Below are positions 1 to 9,942 of a DNA stretch of 40,985 bases, in pieces. The notes under the pieces were generated by a model. It ran no database searches and was not told the origin of the DNA. It was given only the letters and a program-made list of their open reading frames with translations. Source of the stretch: Clostridia bacterium (GTDB lineage Bacteria; Bacillota; Clostridia; UMGS1883; UMGS1540); contig JAZNUH010000094.1 in assembly GCA_045592225.1 (NCBI GenBank), positions 1 to 40,985 of the forward strand. Reading direction: 5' to 3'. The stretch's first letter is position 1. Every line of letters starts with the position of its first letter. A program made the translations under genes and the position numbers.

Positions 1-8
1 TTGGTATA

Positions 9-1094
9 ATGGGCAGGACAACCAACAGACAGTATAACCACCTGTTAAAGGATGCCCACGGTGATGTTGTTGCCGCGGTACAAAACGGCGATGAAAACAC
101 CTACGCCTACGATGCTTTTGGTAACGAAAAGACACCCGACAGCACAGACGATAACCCCTTAAGATACTGCGGTGAATACTTTGACAAAGAATCGGGACTT
201 ATCTATCTCCGTAACCGCTACTATGACCCTGAACTGGGAAGATTCATAAATGAGGATCCCATACAGGATGGACTTAATTGGTATGCGTATTGTGGGAATA
301 ATCCAACGAACTATATAGACCCAACAGGGAGTACATATGTTAGGCTGAGGGGAATATTCCGTACGTATGGTGGAATAGGACGTTATAACAGCAGAATAAG
401 TCAGGTTTGGGCAGATTTTGATGGGCATCCGGAAGTAAATAGAAATTATGGGGCAAAAGATGGTTTTTGGTCGTTCGTTGATAAAACAGATAATAAAATG
501 TATATATGGATACCTACCTCTTCTCAAAAAGACAACGGAATAAATATGCCTTCTTTATCTGGAAACCAGGATGTAGATGTAATGTTGTATGCTGCATTAG
601 GAATGAGAGGGTATCAGGAAACTGGCAACAACAATACTATGTTTGGAGAACAATATGGCATTAATGGAGTAGCGTGGTGTGCTATGTTTGTGTCTTGGGC
701 GGCGAGCAAAGCAGGAATTTTATGTGGCGATAGCGGAGCGGATCCTAATTTTACTCCCAAATTAGCAATGAGTAATAATGGCGTTGTACCAGCGTTTAAA
801 TATTGCCCATATGGGATAGCGGCATACGGAGATAGATTCCATACAACCGCAGGGGGGTACTTACCTAAAGCAGGAGACACATTTTTTATGGGAGCAAAGG
901 GTGGAGATCATACAGGGTTGGTGTTAGCATATGAGAATGGTTATGTATATACAATAGAAGGGAACTCCAACGATAGCGTTGAAGTTAGACGGCGAAGTTT
1001 AAATTCAATTTATGGATTTGGTAGTAATGGAGGTACAAGTTATGGCATTGTTCCGAGTGACTACGATGGGATGGGAGGAGGAACCATACAGTGA
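9..1094 (+). CDS. RHS repeat-associated core protein with C-terminal CHAP (cysteine/histidine amidohydrolase-peptidase) toxin domain; probably 5'-truncated by the window edge
   Basis: RHS core signature YAYDAFG...NPLRYCGEYFDKESGLIYLRNRYYDPELGRFINEDP...NWYAYCGNNPTNYIDPTG. After DPTG come the CHAP motifs WCAMFVSW (Cys codon 678-680), PKAGD, HTGLV (His codon 909-911) and TIEGN. The frame is open back to position 3 (GGT ATA ATG), so the ATG at 9 is probably internal. Confidence 0.88.
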   Translation: MGRTTNRQYNHLLKDAHGDVVAAVQNGDENTYAYDAFGNEKTPDSTDDNPLRYCGEYFDKESGLIYLRNRYYDPELGRFINEDPIQDGLNWYAYCGNNPTNYIDPTGSTYVRLRGIFRTYGGIGRYNSRISQVWADFDGHPEVNRNYGAKDGFWSFVDKTDNKMYIWIPTSSQKDNGINMPSLSGNQDVDVMLYAALGMRGYQETGNNNTMFGEQYGINGVAWCAMFVSWAASKAGILCGDSGADPNFTPKLAMSNNGVVPAFKYCPYGIAAYGDRFHTTAGGYLPKAGDTFFMGAKGGDHTGLVLAYENGYVYTIEGNSNDSVEVRRRSLNSIYGFGSNGGTSYGIVPSDYDGMGGGTIQ

Positions 1095-1714
1095 AAAAGA
1101 ATATTGTATTTTTAAGCGGGATTTTTATTTTGCTACTTTCTGCTTGTGCCGGTAAAGAAAGTATAAACAGGGAGCCTTACATAAAGGAGAATATTTATTC
1201 GCAGGTTGAACTGGTTTCAAGTAATGCGGATATTATATACGAAAACAAAAACTGTGGTTACCGAATTTTGTTTCCCGAAGATTGGAATGGTTGGTTTAAT
1301 GTTTATGAAATAGAAAAGGGATGTACTCAAGTTTGGTTTGAAGGAGTATCAACTGTTTATTCTGTTGGCGACACAATAACAGGCTACCCGAAGGGAAGCC
1401 CAATGTTTTACATCATAACGCAAGAATATGCGGAAAACAATGTTGTGGATTCTATAGAAGTAATAGGAGAGATAGCCGGAGAAAAGTATTTTGTCGCAAC
1501 AGGGAGTAGTTCTCCGTGGGATTTTAGTATGTACCCAAGTGACGGACAATTTGACGAGTTCGATGAACAGTTGCTTAAGAAGCTGCTTTTACAGGAATCC
1601 TTAACAGAAGAAGATGCAATTCTGCTAGACCAATTAAAAGCAAGAAAGATGTCAACAGAAATAAGCCAAGTGTTACGCAGTTTTGGTGAGAGAAAAGGGG
1701 ACGGTTTGCGGTGA
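1091..1714 (+). CDS. Lipoprotein of unknown family, putative cognate immunity protein of the RHS-CHAP toxin
   Basis: The GTG start overlaps the toxin stop (GTGA) and follows a GGAGG RBS. Signal peptide MKKNIVFLSGIFILLLSA-C has lipobox LSAC, and the mature region is acidic. The immunity role is inferred from position. Confidence 0.75.
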   Translation: MKKNIVFLSGIFILLLSACAGKESINREPYIKENIYSQVELVSSNADIIYENKNCGYRILFPEDWNGWFNVYEIEKGCTQVWFEGVSTVYSVGDTITGYPKGSPMFYIITQEYAENNVVDSIEVIGEIAGEKYFVATGSSSPWDFSMYPSDGQFDEFDEQLLKKLLLQESLTEEDAILLDQLKARKMSTEISQVLRSFGERKGDGLR

Positions 1715-1751
1715 CCCCAAGGAAAGACAAGGGGATGGTTTTGCTGTGTCC
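1691..1751 (+). repeat. Two imperfect ~26-bp direct repeats (AGA[A/C]AAGGGGA[C/T]GGTTT[T]GC[G/T]GTG[A/T]CC)
   Basis: agaaaaggggacggtttgcggtgacc (1691-1716) aligns with agacaaggggatggttttgctgtgtcc (1725-1751). Confidence 0.6.
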
Positions 1752-1796
1752 TTATCTCCTGATGACCGATAGTGTCAGGACAAGAAAAATATAATG

Positions 1797-1830
1797 CAAA
1801 AAAAGCGGTGTGAATATTCACACCGCTTTT
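1797..1830. terminator. Bidirectional rho-independent terminator between the convergent lipoprotein gene and gap
   Basis: Perfect 30-bp palindrome aaaagcggtgtgaatattcacaccgctttt (1801-1830) with A/T runs on both sides. Confidence 0.85.
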
Positions 1831-1846: not shown

Positions 1847-2884
<1,038 letters not shown>

Positions 2885-4635: not shown

Positions 4636-5709
4636 TCAGTTTGACAGGCGCACAGACAAACTTTTGCTGCCACCCCCCTGACCGATAAGGGTTACGCTGA
4701 CCCTGTCACCCGGCTTGTAGCTGAAAAGCTGCTGTCGGAGTGTGAGCATGGAATTTACTGCTACGCCACCTATATGGGTTATTATGTCTCCCTGCATTAT
4801 TCCTGCGTCGGCAGCAGGACCGTCCGGGTCGGTTTCGGATACATAAATGCCGCTTTCTCCTTTAAAACTGCCTCCCATATAAAGGGTGGTATTTTTGTCA
4901 TAGGCAAAAAGTCCGAGATAGGGTGTGACGAAATCGCCCTCGGCAACAATGCGGTCAACTATGGGGCGGAAAAGGTCGGAGGGAATGGCAAAGCCAATGC
5001 CCTCGGCAGAGGATACCTTGACGGTGTTTATTCCTATAACCTCGCCCGACATATTTATAAGCGGACCTCCGCTGTTTCCCGGGTTTATGGAAGCGTCGGT
5101 CTGGATAAGATTTTCCATGTAGTACTCCGAGCCGTCTGAAGCGGTAAGGGGCACACTTCTGCCGGTAGCACTTATTATTCCTGCGGTAACAGTTCGCTGA
5201 AACTGAAGGGACAGGGGATTGCCTATGGCTATAACACCTTCTCCCACCTGTACCGACGAGGAATTACCCAAAGCTGCGGTGGGAAGGGAAGAGGCGGAAA
5301 CGTCAATTACCGCAAGGTCTAAAAATTCGTCACTCCATACAGTGGAGGCAGTAAGGCTCTGCCCGTCGTGAAGTGTTACATATATATTGTCTGCATTAGC
5401 TATAACGTGATGGTTTGTCAGAATGTAACCGTCGCTGCTGACAATTACTCCCGAACCCATACTCCACGCCTCGGATGCAGAGGGTGAGTAAAGGGAGTGC
5501 CTGTTTGTATTTGACGAAATTCCCACCACCGAGGGGATAAGCTGTTTTGAAACGGTGGGAATATCACCCGAAGCGGGTTGCGACAGGCTTGAAATTTCAT
5601 AAGTGGGAGCAGGCGCAGAGGGTGTTTTGTGGTTTACCATAACCGATATGCCCAAAGCCACCAGCCCGGAAGCAATAACTGTAAGCAAAAACCCTATATT
5701 TTTTCTCAA
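4636..5709 (-). CDS. htrA: HtrA/DegP-like membrane-anchored serine protease with PDZ domain
   Basis: GSGVIV...ILTNHHV (His), DLAVI (Asp), IQTDASINPGNSGGPL (Ser) and a C-terminal PDZ (GPAADAGIMQGDII). The start is moved to TTG 5709 because an AAGGAG RBS lies just upstream. Confidence 0.92.
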   Translation of the reverse strand: MRKNIGFLLTVIASGLVALGISVMVNHKTPSAPAPTYEISSLSQPASGDIPTVSKQLIPSVVGISSNTNRHSLYSPSASEAWSMGSGVIVSSDGYILTNHHVIANADNIYVTLHDGQSLTASTVWSDEFLDLAVIDVSASSLPTAALGNSSSVQVGEGVIAIGNPLSLQFQRTVTAGIISATGRSVPLTASDGSEYYMENLIQTDASINPGNSGGPLINMSGEVIGINTVKVSSAEGIGFAIPSDLFRPIVDRIVAEGDFVTPYLGLFAYDKNTTLYMGGSFKGESGIYVSETDPDGPAADAGIMQGDIITHIGGVAVNSMLTLRQQLFSYKPGDRVSVTLIGQGGGSKSLSVRLSN

Positions 5710-5797
5710 AAAATCATCTCCTTTGCCTTTATTTTTCCGCCGGTGCATAAAAAAATGAAAAAACTTAAAATAAATTTAATTTTTTTTTAAAAAACTA

Positions 5798-5826
5798 TTG
5801 AAATCCATGTAAAAATGGTGTAAAAT
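5798..5826 (+). promoter_or_regulatory. sigmaA promoter of the dcw operon
   Basis: TTGAAA (5798-5803)-N17-TAAAAT (5821-5826) with an AT-rich upstream tract. Confidence 0.7.
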
Positions 5827-5832
5827 TTGTGT

Positions 5833-5869
5833 AAAGTGGTATAAAGTAGCACGAAATGTCACAAAGTGG
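5833..5869 (+). promoter_or_regulatory. MraZ-binding direct repeats (10-bp period)
   Basis: AAAGTGG (5833), AAAGTAG (5843), GAAATGT (5853) and AAAGTGG (5863) lie immediately upstream of mraZ, matching the known GTGG-type MraZ operator arrays. Confidence 0.75.
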
Positions 5870-5881
5870 GGAGGTGAAGGC

Positions 5882-6316
5882 ATGTTCGAAGGTCAATTTT
5901 TTCATAATATTGATGCAAAGGGAAGGATAGTTATGCCTTCACAGCTCAGGGAAGGACTGGGTGAAACTTTTGTAATCACACGAGGATATGAGGGCTGCCT
6001 CACCGTTTATTCGCAGGAAGAATGGGAAAGGTTTGCGGCAAGGCTTGCGGCAATGCCGGAGCATAATGCAGCTGCAAGACGAATTCTTCGTATTTTCTCG
6101 TCGGGCGCAGCAAGATGTGAAGCGGACAAGCAGGGCAGAATATTAATTCCTTCTCATTTAAGAGAATATGCCGGCATTGAAAAAGAGGTTGTAATAATCG
6201 GCACACTTTCAAAGATTGAACTCTGGGATGCTGAAAAGTGGAACAAATATAACAGTGATGATGATGCCCTTTCTCTCGAAGAGGCTGCTGAAAGTCTTTC
6301 TGCTTTCGGAGGTTGA
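5882..6316 (+). CDS. mraZ: Division/cell wall cluster transcriptional repressor MraZ
   Basis: Two DxxGR motifs ([16 protein letters not shown]); first gene of the dcw cluster. Confidence 0.97.
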
Positions 6317-6318
6317 TT

Positions 6319-7242
6319 ATGGAGTTTCACCATATTACAGTGCTCAAGCAGGAAACGGTAAACGGTCTTTGTGTTAAAAAAGGCGGTATTTACGTTGATA
6401 TGACTCTCGGTGGCGGCGGTCATAGCGAGGAGATAATAAAAAGAGGCGGCAAGGTTATTGGAATTGACCGCGACATAAATGCCATCCGCGCGGCAAGTGA
6501 GCGACTTGCATGGGCGGGGGACAGCTTTAAGGCGGTAAAGGGCAACTTTAAAGATATAAAGCCCATACTTGCAGAGCAGGGTATTGACAAGGTTGATGGT
6601 GTGGTAATGGACCTTGGAGTATCATCCCCACAGCTTGATGAAGCGGAAAGAGGCTTTTCCTATATGCAGGATGCACCCCTTGATATGCGAATGGACAGGG
6701 ACGAGCTATTTACTGCATATGATGTGGTAAACGGATATGACGCATCAAAGCTTATGCGCGTTATAAGTGACTACGGTGAAGAGCGCTGGGCAAAAAGAAT
6801 TGCCGAATTTATAGTAAAGGCAAGACAAAAGGAAGAAATCAAGACCACAGGTGAGCTTGTGGATATAATAAAAGCCGCAATTCCCAAAGCGGCAAGGGGT
6901 GACGGACATCCCGCGAAAAGAACCTTTCAGGCAATAAGAATAGAGGTTAACGGTGAACTTAAAATTTTAGAGCAGGCGGCGGCAGATGCTGTGGACATGC
7001 TCGCAAAGGGCGGCAGAATATCGGTAATAACCTTCCATTCGCTTGAAGACAGAATAATAAAGAATTTGTTTGTAAGCCTTAAAAACAGTTGCACATGCCC
7101 CAAGGATTTTCCTGTTTGTGTGTGCGGCGGTGAACAGAAAATAAAAATAATAACAAGTAAGCCGGTAATTGCAGATGCCAACGAACTGGAGCAAAACTCC
7201 AGAGCAAAAAGTGCAAAACTCCGGGTTGCGGAAAGGATGTAA
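6319..7242 (+). CDS. rsmH: 16S rRNA m4C1402 methyltransferase RsmH (MraW)
   Basis: [47 protein letters not shown] and ITFHSLEDR motifs. The ATG at 6319 is chosen from GGAGG spacing. Confidence 0.97.
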
Positions 7243-7245
7243 ACG

Positions 7246-7701
7246 GTGCAACCAGTATACGGAAGCAATGCGTACAAATATGAAACAGCTCGTCAGTACA
7301 GTAAAGAGACGCAGGTAAAAACACGAAAGAAAGTAAGCAGAAGACCTAAAAAAGCGGTTATAAAGAGCTTGTTACTCACCGCTTTAGTTACCTTGCTTGC
7401 TTTTTGTCTTTTAGGAAGAAATGCACAGATTATTGAACAGTCGAGCCAGATTGCACGTTTAGAAAACGAGATTGCCGCAACCGAGGCTAAAATTATAGAA
7501 AAACAGTTTGAAATGGAAAAGAAAATCGACCTGAATGCTATAGAGGACAGAGCTATAGCTGTTCTTGGAATGCAAAGACCTGAAAAATCGCAGATAGTTT
7601 ACATAGATATGCACGCAGAGGATTATACAGAGGGTGGTGCACAGCAGAAGAATAACGCGGGAATTATAAGTGCATTTATAAAACGTATATGGAATAATTA
7701 A
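7246..7701 (+). CDS. ftsL: FtsL-like cell division protein (basic N-terminus, single TM helix, coiled coil)
   Basis: Lies between rsmH and the class B PBP; TM helix followed by a coiled coil and IEDRAIAVLGMQRP. Confidence 0.75.
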   Translation: MQPVYGSNAYKYETARQYSKETQVKTRKKVSRRPKKAVIKSLLLTALVTLLAFCLLGRNAQIIEQSSQIARLENEIAATEAKIIEKQFEMEKKIDLNAIEDRAIAVLGMQRPEKSQIVYIDMHAEDYTEGGAQQKNNAGIISAFIKRIWNN

Positions 7702-7755
7702 ATGCACGTGTTTATATATTAATATTATAAAATTTAAAAAGGAGGTCTGTCATAG

Positions 7756-9942
7756 GTGGCTAAGAGCAAGAAAAATATCAAGAAGCGTATGATGGGTCTC
7801 TATATTGTTTTTTTAGTATGCATGGTCATTTTACTGGGTGTAACCGCCTACTGGCAGTTTATACGCGGCAGCTGGCTTAAGGAGGAGGCTGAAAAGCAGC
7901 AGACGCGCGACAGCCTTGTAACCGCAAAGCGCGGTGTTATTTATGACCGTAATATGAAGGTTATTGCACAAAGTGCAAGTGCATATATGGTGTGCGTTGT
8001 GCCTGTGGAAATAAATAAAGAAGAAGGCAACGCCGAAATGGTGTCCAAGGCACTTTCCGAAATCCTTGATATAGACTATGAAGCGGTATATGAAAAAACA
8101 CAGAGAGATTCATACTACGAAATTGTAGCAAAAAAAGTAGAACAGAGTGATGTTGATAAAATTAAGGCGCTGGAGCTTCCCGGTGTAAGATTTGACGAGG
8201 ATACAAAGAGATATTACCCCAACGGTAACTTTGCATCCCACGTTATCGGCTTTACAGGGGATGATAACCAGGGCCTTGACGGCATTGAGGCAATTTTAAA
8301 CGAGGAGCTCAGCGGAATATCGGGCAGAATAAGAACGGCAAAGAATGCGGCAGGCACCGATATGCCCTACGAACACGAAGAATACGTTGACCCGGTAGAC
8401 GGAGGAGACGTTGTACTTACAATAGATGAGGTTATCCAGCACTTTACCGAAAAGCACCTTGAAGATGCACGCATAAATAATAGTATTCTGGAGGGTGCTT
8501 CAGCCATTGTTATGAATCCGCAGACGGGCGAAATACTTGCAATGACCACCAAGCCCGATTTTGACTTAAATCAGCCATTCCTTATAGAGGACGAAGAAAT
8601 TCTGAGCATAATTGCCGAGCTTGAAGGTGACGAAAAAACCAAAGCAGTAAACGAGGCACTGCAAAAGAAGTGGAGAAACAAGGCAACGGTTGATACATAC
8701 GAGCCGGGCTCAACCTTCAAGGCAATGGTTGCGGCAGCGGCAATAGAAGAAAATGTTATAGGACCGAATGACACCTTCACCTGCACAGGCTCCAAAACAG
8801 TTTCGGGCGTGCCTATAAGATGTCACAAGGTTACCGGACACGGCACACAGACCTTTGAAGAAGCGGTTAAAAATTCCTGTAACCCCGCACTTATGGAAAT
8901 TGGCGCAAAGCTGGGCAAGGAAAACTTTATAAAATATTTCAAGGCATTCGGATTTATGGAAAAAACAGGACTTGAGCTTGGCGAATCTGTGGGTATTTTC
9001 CATAACCCCAAAAGCTTTACAGAACTGAATCTGGCAACAAGCTCCTTCGGACAGAGCTTTACTGTTACACCCTTGCAGATGATTAATGCAATGTGTGCAA
9101 TAGCAAACGGCGGCAATCTTATGAAGCCCCACCTTGTAAAAGAGGTAATCGGGCAGGACGGTTCAATAATAACCACGGTAGAGCCGGAGATAATCCGTCA
9201 GGTTATATCCAAGGATACAAGCGACAAGATGCGTACAATACTCGAAAGCGTTGTATCCGACGGCGGCGGTAAAAACGCCTATGTAAAAGGCTACAGAGTA
9301 GCCGGCAAAACGGGTACAAGTGAAAAGCTTCCCCGTGGAAGCGGAACATACATAGCATCATTTCTGGGCTTTGCCCCTGCCGACAATCCGCAGATAGCGG
9401 TTATAGTAATGCTTGACAATCCCGGTGGTGACGAATACTACGGCGGTATGATTGCGGCACCTGTTGTAGGCAGAATAATGGAGGATACTCTCCGTTATCT
9501 GGGCGTTGAACCGCAGTACACGGCAGAAGAGCTTGAAAGCAACGAAACAGCAATACCCGAGGTTGTGGGTATGAGCCTGTCCGAAGCACAGGGCACACTT
9601 GCAAATAACGGATTTAAATATCTTGTTGTGGGTGAGGGTGACAAGGTAATAAGCCAGATGCCCAAGGCAGGAACAAGACTCGGTGCAAATGCAATTTGCA
9701 TACTTTATACTGCAGAGGGAAGCGACGGACAAACGGCAGTAGTGCCCGATGTAACACAAATGTCGGCGTATGACTGTAACTATACACTTACAAACGCAGG
9801 GCTTAACTTTAAAGTAACAGGGCCGGGCAAAAACATACAAAACGGCGCGGCAATGGCAATTAAGCAGGAGCCTGCACCGGGAACAGAGCTGCCGCTCGGC
9901 TCGGTGGTAAGCGTTGAATTCAGAAGTGTGAGCATTGAATAA
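7756..9942 (+). CDS. spoVD: Class B penicillin-binding protein with two PASTA domains (SpoVD/FtsI type)
   Basis: RGVIYDRN and RYYP dimerisation-domain motifs; SxxK (EPGSTFK), SxN (SCN) and KTG (GKTGT); C-terminal PASTA repeats (IPEVVG, VPDVT). Confidence 0.88.
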   Translation: MAKSKKNIKKRMMGLYIVFLVCMVILLGVTAYWQFIRGSWLKEEAEKQQTRDSLVTAKRGVIYDRNMKVIAQSASAYMVCVVPVEINKEEGNAEMVSKALSEILDIDYEAVYEKTQRDSYYEIVAKKVEQSDVDKIKALELPGVRFDEDTKRYYPNGNFASHVIGFTGDDNQGLDGIEAILNEELSGISGRIRTAKNAAGTDMPYEHEEYVDPVDGGDVVLTIDEVIQHFTEKHLEDARINNSILEGASAIVMNPQTGEILAMTTKPDFDLNQPFLIEDEEILSIIAELEGDEKTKAVNEALQKKWRNKATVDTYEPGSTFKAMVAAAAIEENVIGPNDTFTCTGSKTVSGVPIRCHKVTGHGTQTFEEAVKNSCNPALMEIGAKLGKENFIKYFKAFGFMEKTGLELGESVGIFHNPKSFTELNLATSSFGQSFTVTPLQMINAMCAIANGGNLMKPHLVKEVIGQDGSIITTVEPEIIRQVISKDTSDKMRTILESVVSDGGGKNAYVKGYRVAGKTGTSEKLPRGSGTYIASFLGFAPADNPQIAVIVMLDNPGGDEYYGGMIAAPVVGRIMEDTLRYLGVEPQYTAEELESNETAIPEVVGMSLSEAQGTLANNGFKYLVVGEGDKVISQMPKAGTRLGANAICILYTAEGSDGQTAVVPDVTQMSAYDCNYTLTNAGLNFKVTGPGKNIQNGAAMAIKQEPAPGTELPLGSVVSVEFRSVSIE

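Follow-up and report, generated by a model that had tools for sequence, protein, structure and literature searches.

The window, by which we mean the whole stretch of 40,985 nucleotides (nt) analysed here, is C94:1-40985 of the draft genome of a Clostridia bacterium (G000; assembly GCA_045592225.1; 1.83 Mb in 164 contigs, 96% complete). It opens with two genes on the forward strand: the 3' part of an RHS gene, which carries a predicted CHAP-type wall hydrolase as its tip, and a lipoprotein gene that is proposed to encode the cognate immunity. Since the window begins at the first base of contig C94, the contig end truncates the RHS gene at window base 1. What remains is an open frame of 363 amino acids (aa), which reaches from base 3 to a TGA at 1092-1094. 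The ATG at position 9, where an earlier note on this DNA had placed the start of the gene, is the first ATG within that open frame and no demonstrated start; the core and the tip described in the note were recovered, and the proposed start gave way to a truncated frame.

The RHS part of the gene (3..329) matches the Rhs_assc_core model TIGR03696 over aa 36-109 (nt 108-329; E 7.2e-27, 93.7 bits against a cut-off of 32.5). The match ends exactly where the earlier note had drawn the end of the core, at a DPTG boundary between conserved core and variable tip (gac cca aca ggg, 318..329). A single RHS repeat is left in the window frame, below threshold (14.4 bits against 22), the contig edge cutting the array; in a paralogue on contig C160 of the same genome the RHS repeats reach 41.5 bits. 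The boundary is followed by a linker or pre-CHAP region (aa 110-181, 330..545), part of which aligns with a CHAP protein on the phage-like contig C159 of the same genome. For this stretch of 72 aa, searches of Pfam and NCBIfam gave no family match. The frame runs unbroken from core to tip, and none of the catalytic residues is missing.

The remainder of the frame (546..1094) comprises the CHAP domain, a conserved C-terminal tail (FGSNGGT.YG..P) and the stop codon. The domain matches PF05257 over aa 221-321 (nt 663-965; E 1.1e-7, 32.7 bits against a cut-off of 26), and the tip matches PHROG endolysin families at E 3e-14. At E <=1 the Pfam search of the tip returned only CHAP and RHS_repeat, and the NCBIfam search only two RHS-core models and TIGR02594. 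Cysteine, histidine and the TIEGN motif are intact, as had been noted earlier: Cys226 is encoded by tgt at 678..680, His303 by cat at 909..911, and the motif, with Glu319 and Asn321, lies at 951..965, where it aligns with the TIEQN of the solved chain 5udm_B. The catalytic roles of Cys226, His303 and the Glu-Asn pair are those which we take over from characterised CHAP enzymes. Cysteine, histidine and glutamate are invariant in all seven lipoprotein-linked CHAP domains. With the CHAP domain alone as query, phmmer matched none of the solved structures. The tip is classed as a putative CHAP-type peptidoglycan hydrolase. In the profile searches that the earlier note had called for, core and CHAP domain both score above the curated thresholds, and this pair of genes is found again at other loci; the observation is therefore not a chance one.

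Among the CHAP relatives whose flanks hold no member of the lipoprotein family, several of the closest, from Oscillospiraceae genomes, resemble conserved housekeeping hydrolases. A full-length RHS protein of 1693 aa (P0002) combines a signal peptide, RHS repeats and a CHAP tip that is 44% identical to that of the window. The genome of the window itself holds a further weak CHAP-like match (C106:4990-5298), 29-34% identical to the tip.

The start codon of the lipoprotein gene (1091..1714; 207 aa) is a GTG at 1091. It overlaps the TGA of the tip (GTGA), so that the two genes share 4 nt, in agreement with the translational coupling noted before. A Shine-Dalgarno-like gggaggagga was read directly at 1072..1081, upstream of this start. 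The N-terminus, MKKNIVFLSGIFILLLSAC, has the layout MKK-NIVFLSGIFILL-LSAC, which is a positive start, a hydrophobic stretch and a standard lipobox (L-S-A-C), with Cys19 encoded at 1145-1147. No Pfam or NCBIfam model matched the lipoprotein even at E <=1, and a word-index search recovered, among 183 candidates, the lipoprotein itself alone. A tblastn search of the own genome yielded five tandem paralogues on contig C159, which are 24-28% identical.

The variability of the tip can be followed within the same genome. A second RHS 3' end lies at the edge of contig C160 (C160:26856-28684, minus strand; locus L005). Its DNA at C160:28050-28371 is 89% identical to window 1-322, and the encoded cores are 85% identical over 114 aa. 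The identity stops at the DPxG (window base 322; DPSG in C160), beyond which the C160 gene continues into a nuclease domain resembling CDI_toxin_EC869 (PF21111, E 3e-11), followed by a partner gene of 184 aa without a signal peptide and without a family. Given the 85% identical core and the switch at DPSG to a nuclease tip, the tip is therefore variable. By this alignment the genome carries one core type with two tips, CHAP being exchanged for a nuclease in the paralogue. An array in an unrelated genome (G192:C33; L027, 2-8997) consists of an RHS gene end and three orphan modules that share a core fragment at their start, and contains four different tips (one unknown, one CHAP-like, one SH3-bearing and one weakly lipase-like), each with its own small partner gene. 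The tip is in this respect not the invariant domain that would mark a housekeeping autolysin. Moreover, the location of the partner matches the tip, the nuclease of C160 having a cytoplasmic and the wall hydrolase of the window an exported partner, which bears out the agreement between target and immunity locations that had been predicted for the window.

A co-fold of the CHAP domain with the lipoprotein had been proposed in the earlier note as a check. The input used here consisted of CHAP aa 182-363 (alignment of 8 rows) and lipoprotein aa 44-207 (alignment of 16 rows). Three runs scored 0.83, 0.84 and 0.77 (median 0.83); among three controls the highest score was 0.00. Of the solved complexes 116 of 157 reach the mark applied, as do 2 of 215 mismatched pairs, counts that hold only roughly here, since own alignments were used. 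The runs share at least 82% of their contacts, and the partner has a predicted local distance difference test score (pLDDT) of at least 86. The confident contacts join the CHAP segments with Cys226, His303 and Glu319-Asn321 to lipoprotein aa 136-147. This loop, ATGSSSPWDFSM (1496..1531), is predicted to lie on the CHAP active site and is the most conserved motif of the family (consensus YYATGT). Among solved structures no relative of the lipoprotein was found by sequence (best E 0.044, on the signal-peptide region), and the pass is therefore not a recall of the same family. The model supports binding of the lipoprotein to the CHAP domain, and suggests that the loop occludes the active site.

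The lipoprotein family was followed through overlapping genome samples of the order, class and phylum, among which the genome of the window is itself counted. Such proteins are rare, with matches in 5 of 87 genomes of the order, in 13 of 400 genomes of the class (E <=1e-6) and in 14 of 401 genomes of the phylum (E <=1e-8), in the last mostly as partial matches. Seven robust loci, with a strong match over the full domain, are found in five genomes, and in four of these loci (the window, C159, G192:C33 and G736:C42) a CHAP gene lies directly upstream. From the side of the hydrolase, the best 80 CHAP relatives in species-representative genomes and 80 metagenome loci were surveyed with their fetched flanks. 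A family member at E <=1e-4 accompanies 5 of the 80 genome loci and is strong and directly downstream in two (L030 and L032); 3 of the 80 metagenome loci hold a family member, again with two strong, directly downstream cases (L114 and L182). Homologues of the lipoprotein are therefore not unlinked to toxins, the best-ranked CHAP locus being among the linked ones.

Taken together, seven distinct CHAP-lipoprotein cassettes were collected, of which three have an RHS core, two lie next to phage head genes and two carry other N-terminal modules. The RHS cores are those of the window, of G192:C33 and of the metagenome locus L182, where a core with a CHAP tip is followed by a lipoprotein of 217 aa. 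In G192:C33, the most informative of the loci, it is the first orphan module (356 aa, CHAP E 1e-30) that has a family member, of 202 aa (E 2.9e-52), 7 nt behind it; the remaining cassettes of this array have other tips, and partners unrelated to the lipoprotein family. One of the phage-borne cassettes is found in the window's own genome on C159 (L004, 4672-9204), beside phage portal and major-head genes. Its CHAP protein of 351 aa is 37.5% identical to the window tip, in an alignment that starts near the DPxG position and extends to the C-terminus, and is directly followed by the five tandem lipoprotein paralogues, which have a membrane anchor and a long Pro/Thr-rich linker in place of the lipobox. 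The other is L030, the rank-1 CHAP locus, where a CHAP protein of 512 aa follows phage head genes and precedes two lipoproteins. The two cassettes with other N-terminal modules are L032 (rank 3; a metagenome-assembled genome of the Clostridia, 4788-9822) and L114, which is the same element as G736:C42. In the L032 protein (581 aa) a helical module at the N-terminus precedes two PG_binding_1 domains, LysM and CHAP; the lipoprotein comes directly after this protein and, further downstream, there is a paralogue of it that shares the N-terminus and is devoid of a CHAP domain. For the seven pairs, the pairwise similarities of CHAP and lipoprotein correlate with r 0.57, a value reached by 33 of 5040 permutations. 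From a set of seven pairs, what can be read is that the two genes are inherited together as a unit; it is no proof of co-evolution. Judged by gene order, the CHAP and lipoprotein genes move as one cassette among RHS, phage-borne and other scaffolds.

Two further observations were made at the loci with other N-terminal modules. The helical module of L032, for which no Pfam match was found, is shared by a protein of Paenibacillus aceti (L047, 5081-10180), and the wall-hydrolase ends of the two proteins differ. The L047 CHAP protein has 788 aa and is followed by several lipoproteins, with a distant family member about 2 kb downstream. L032 and L047 look like a separate polymorphic wall-hydrolase toxin system, as far as their architecture goes. 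In L114 (4286-8936) and L190 (260-3448) an N-terminal part of about 175 aa with a peptidoglycan-binding domain is repeated; it is joined once to the CHAP end with the family lipoprotein and, about 1.6 kb on, to a different end and partner. The CHAP gene of L114 is split into two frames.

A family profile built from six lipoprotein domains was run against 1.84 billion representatives and matched 143 of them at E <=1e-3 (87 at <=1e-10 and 6 at <=1e-30). Most members are 170-260 aa long and carry the domain C-terminally, and a few hold two or three copies of it. By our own pattern, a lipobox is present in 97 of the 143; 23 have a different hydrophobic N-terminus, and the remaining 23, several of them visibly truncated, show neither. 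The sole recurring Pfam family is PsbP_2 (PF18933), found in 9 of 72 members at E <=1 (best 9.1e-5), and its cut-off is reached by one of 36 scanned members (27.5 bits against 27). Atlas leads to a PsbP/Mog1-like fold are weak (0.80-0.81). The family is unnamed and probably has, to go by these remote matches, a PsbP/Mog1-like fold. Pattern scans based on the lipoprotein alignment A3 gave 25 matches on genome contigs, 75 on viral contigs and 46 on metagenome contigs, none of which was confirmed as a relative. Fusions to a BlaR1-type M56 sensor, Cu_amine_oxidN1, LRR and YARHG were observed in P0277, P0197, P0202, P0233, P0249 and P0258. The fold seems, from these architectures, to be a general surface binding module, of which immunity would be one use.

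We consider it likely that the locus represents the 3' end of an RHS polymorphic toxin with an exchangeable CHAP tip and its cognate immunity lipoprotein, in a probable Gram-positive gut member of the Bacillota. In the proposed mechanism the RHS protein would be exported, probably via Sec. Sec is the best guess because the full-length relative has a signal peptide and because EssC and WXG100 were not found. A type VII route was considered and gained no support: in the 96%-complete genome the best EssC match has 117.8 bits, below the cut-off of 778.4, and a search for WXG100 proteins found none, although absence from a draft assembly does not amount to proof. RHS cores are known to cleave themselves and thereby to free the tip, and self-cleavage at the DPTG boundary would release the CHAP domain here. 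The freed domain would then cut the exposed wall peptidoglycan of neighbouring cells from the outside. The producer and its kin would be protected by the membrane-anchored lipoprotein, whose conserved ATG(S/T) loop would plug the Cys-His-Glu active site, and which may neutralise toxin that reaches the membrane-proximal zone or is freed during export. The wall as the target, the killing and the inhibition are inferred.

Several points weigh against this reading. The evidence is computational throughout, and the calibration of the co-fold is a rough one, as said. The N-terminus of the RHS protein, with its signal and shell, is absent from the window through the contig end, and a search for a further RHS body in the own genome found none. 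The gene is truncated, so that the label of RHS toxin has to be taken from the core alone, and the cassette could be a silent, promoterless orphan. A membrane-tethered inhibitor with a short linker may leave the outer layers of a thick wall unprotected, and the linker of the window lipoprotein is indeed short when compared with the long Pro/Thr linkers of the phage-contig paralogues. Three of the seven robust loci have no CHAP neighbour: in G054:C68 the lipoprotein is an orphan among small membrane proteins, in G192:C43 its gene has an internal TAA, and in G014:C27 (L014 7944-9902) the domain ends a secreted protein of 652 aa amid the housekeeping genes nusA and infB. On the CHAP side, no family member was seen in the flanks fetched for 75 of the 80 genome loci and for 77 of the 80 metagenome loci, many of the metagenome flanks being short. 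Finally, some family members are fused to Cu_amine_oxidN1, LRR, YARHG, NAGPA or BlaR1-M56 modules. In view of the orphans and of these fusions to unrelated surface proteins, the family is therefore not exclusively one of immunity proteins.

A further reading, which we regard as rather unlikely, places the emphasis on the lipoproteins. The PsbP-like lipoproteins would be a dedicated family of surface anti-lysin inhibitors, carried by temperate phages as arrays beside a CHAP enzyme (five copies on C159, two on L030), and borrowed by RHS and other polymorphic toxins. If this were true, lysogens would be shielded from the lysins of related phages as well as from the CHAP toxins of their neighbours, which would amount to a superinfection or community immunity acting at the cell wall.

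A quite improbable explanation is that the CHAP domain opens the producer's own wall for the passage of large proteins, with the lipoprotein as a local regulator. There is precedent for such a role in EssH of the S. aureus type VII system, a CHAP hydrolase required for secretion, and CHAP genes without a shown toxin role are present at some type VII loci (passages of PMC10765036 and PMC13492133). In addition, most relatives of the CHAP subfamily resemble ordinary wall hydrolases or phage lysins. However, the CHAP domain of the window sits past the DPTG, in the exchangeable toxin position, and is replaced by a nuclease in the C160 paralogue. A remodelling function also fits poorly with a pair that moves among unrelated scaffolds, with orphan arrays and with multi-copy partner arrays, and a search of the own genome found neither an EssC above the cut-off nor a WXG100 protein.

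Equally improbable, in our opinion, is the capture of a phage lysin and anti-lysis unit by a decayed RHS remnant that no longer delivers anything. RHS-repeat relics are dispersed over other contigs of the own genome, and together with the truncation of the gene they lend this explanation some weight, as do the match of the window tip to PHROG endolysin families and the two of seven cassettes that have phage head genes as neighbours and contain 2 to 5 copies of the lipoprotein. Against it, the frame is intact from core through tip and the catalytic residues are complete. Furthermore, a 44%-identical CHAP tip is carried by the full-length RHS protein of 1693 aa with its signal peptide, and three fusions to an RHS core, independent of one another, are known.

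A role of the lipoprotein as a chaperone or adaptor, comparable to that of the Eag proteins, which are PsbP/Mog1-like and encoded next to type VI Rhs effectors, is very improbable, since the remote PsbP likeness of the family (PsbP_2 as described above) and the PsbP/MOG1-like proteins adjoining type VI toxins (in passages of Zhang et al. 2012, PMC3482391) have to be set against an exported lipoprotein outside the cytoplasm where such chaperones act, a gene that is found downstream of the tip and whose variation follows that of the tip and not that of a delivery domain, tandem arrays and orphans as shown by immunity genes, and a predicted contact that covers the catalytic site.

Beyond the RHS/lipoprotein pair, the window is annotated with core chromosome genes. 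These include cyclophilin, an LCP protein, HtrA, uvrC, topA, guaB, an SLH protein and argGH, as well as the mraZ-to-ftsZ cell-division cluster with a PASTA-bearing penicillin-binding protein; the RHS/lipoprotein locus is therefore chromosomal, and this set of genes is in keeping with an organism of the Bacillota. There are no secretion-system genes among those in the 39 kb downstream of the pair. The gene following the lipoprotein, for glyceraldehyde-3-phosphate dehydrogenase (GAPDH; 1847-2857, minus strand), is convergent to it. A hairpin of 13 pairs with flanking A and T runs (1801..1830) separates the pair from the GAPDH gene and, from its structure, is likely a two-way terminator common to both.

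At and just past the lipoprotein stop codon (1691..1760, forward strand) there are two copies of a short dispersed repeat with the core AAGGGGAYGGTT. This core, often in the form GACAAGGGGACGGTTCTNTTGTC, occurs in 11 copies on 8 contigs, including C57, C61, C64, C150 and C162. The same position after the C160 immunity gene (C160:26828-26874) matches the repeat at 84%, so that both immunity genes carry the repeat at their 3' edge. On C61, C162 and C160 it adjoins small RHS-repeat relics (…EHFAYD.LGNLIA…). The repeat may mark, judging from its positions, the recombination joints of RHS cassettes.

Copies of the lipoprotein gene with 0-4 differences are present in contigs from three animal-gut DNA runs belonging to three studies. 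One contig from an RNA library covers the 3' part of the gene, which by itself is no sign of transcription. The animal-gut contig matches (window 1023-1719) begin at about 1023-1036, and two of the contigs differ from the window upstream of this for 39-45 letters. In other strains the lipoprotein gene may, on this alignment, stand behind a diverged or different upstream gene. None of the contigs of four runs covers window 389-970 at 90% likeness, an observation from which we draw no inference.

Several known systems resemble the proposed pair in part. WapA-WapI of Bacillus subtilis is an RHS/YD-repeat toxin with immunity, in which the tips are tRNases and the immunity proteins cytoplasmic. It shares with the window the Gram-positive RHS protein, the variable C-terminal tip after the core and the immunity gene directly downstream, and the Sec-type signal peptide of P0002 fits the same export mode. 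WapA is the scaffold closest to the toxin of the window, from which it differs in that the window combines a wall-hydrolase tip with an exported lipoprotein and lacks the N-terminus.

With respect to the target, the pair can be compared with the Tae/Tai pairs (Tse1-Tsi1, Ssp1-Rap1a; PMC3852654), in which a peptidoglycan-cleaving cysteine peptidase is countered by an immunity protein in the compartment of the wall. For the window, too, the inhibitor would be located where the wall lies, and it is predicted to sit over the active site. However, a type VI system is lacking, the organism being a probable monoderm, the delivery would be from the outside instead of by periplasmic injection, and the immunity protein belongs to a different, unnamed fold family. 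The Gram-positive parallel to Tae/Tai that the earlier note had drawn thus holds as a functional resemblance and not as family homology, as the tip and the lipoprotein match none of these families in Pfam or NCBIfam at E <=1.

TelC of Streptococcus intermedius is likewise a Gram-positive polymorphic toxin with a target beyond the membrane, in the inner zone of the wall; it is an LXG lipid II phosphatase that is exported by type VII and has the surface-exposed immunity protein TipC (PMC5555719, PMC6193138 and a passage of PMC10765036). The window differs in having a CHAP hydrolase on an RHS core, and type VII components were not found in its own genome. Papain-like wall peptidases at the tips of RHS toxins, predicted to degrade the walls of target cells, are another point of likeness, found in the Tox-NlpC/P60 toxins of Bacteroidetes and delta-proteobacteria in passages of Zhang et al. 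2012 (PMC3482391). There, delivery is listed as type VI secretion (T6SS), PVC or TcdB/TcaC and the immunity family as '-' (PMC3482391), and Imm65 is given as the only lipoprotein immunity of the collection. A CHAP-lipoprotein pair of the Bacillota does not appear in the main-text passages of this catalogue (PMC3482391) that were compared, the supplements lying outside the comparison. The X-Tfe/X-Tfi pairs of Xanthomonas (PMC10933484) are likewise wall-targeting effectors with cognate immunity, which may guard the producer from its own effector as well as from attack by sister cells; they differ in being Gram-negative, delivered by type IV and made up of unrelated proteins.

In full-text searches of the literature (subscription journals and supplements apart) we found no CHAP-tipped RHS toxin with lipoprotein immunity in the Bacillota, nor this lipoprotein family. 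As a concept, such a pair is familiar. Among Gram-positive RHS proteins this class of toxin is new, and the family of the immunity protein has no name. The characterised Gram-positive contact or proximity toxins mostly hit nucleic acids, NAD, membranes or lipid II. None of the type VII toxins of streptococci and enterococci in the table of a 2026 review (PMC13492133) cuts peptidoglycan.

If the preferred reading of an RHS toxin with a CHAP tip and a cognate immunity lipoprotein is true, the pair would represent a toxin that attacks the exposed wall from the outside, together with a new family of proteinaceous CHAP inhibitors that act by a loop in the active site. CHAP lysins are under development as antibacterial enzymes, and if CHAP inhibitors of a natural family are spread by phages and mobile cassettes, this would be relevant to resistance against such enzymes. 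For the lipoprotein family, it would provide a proposed function for about 143 clusters of "hypothetical lipoproteins".

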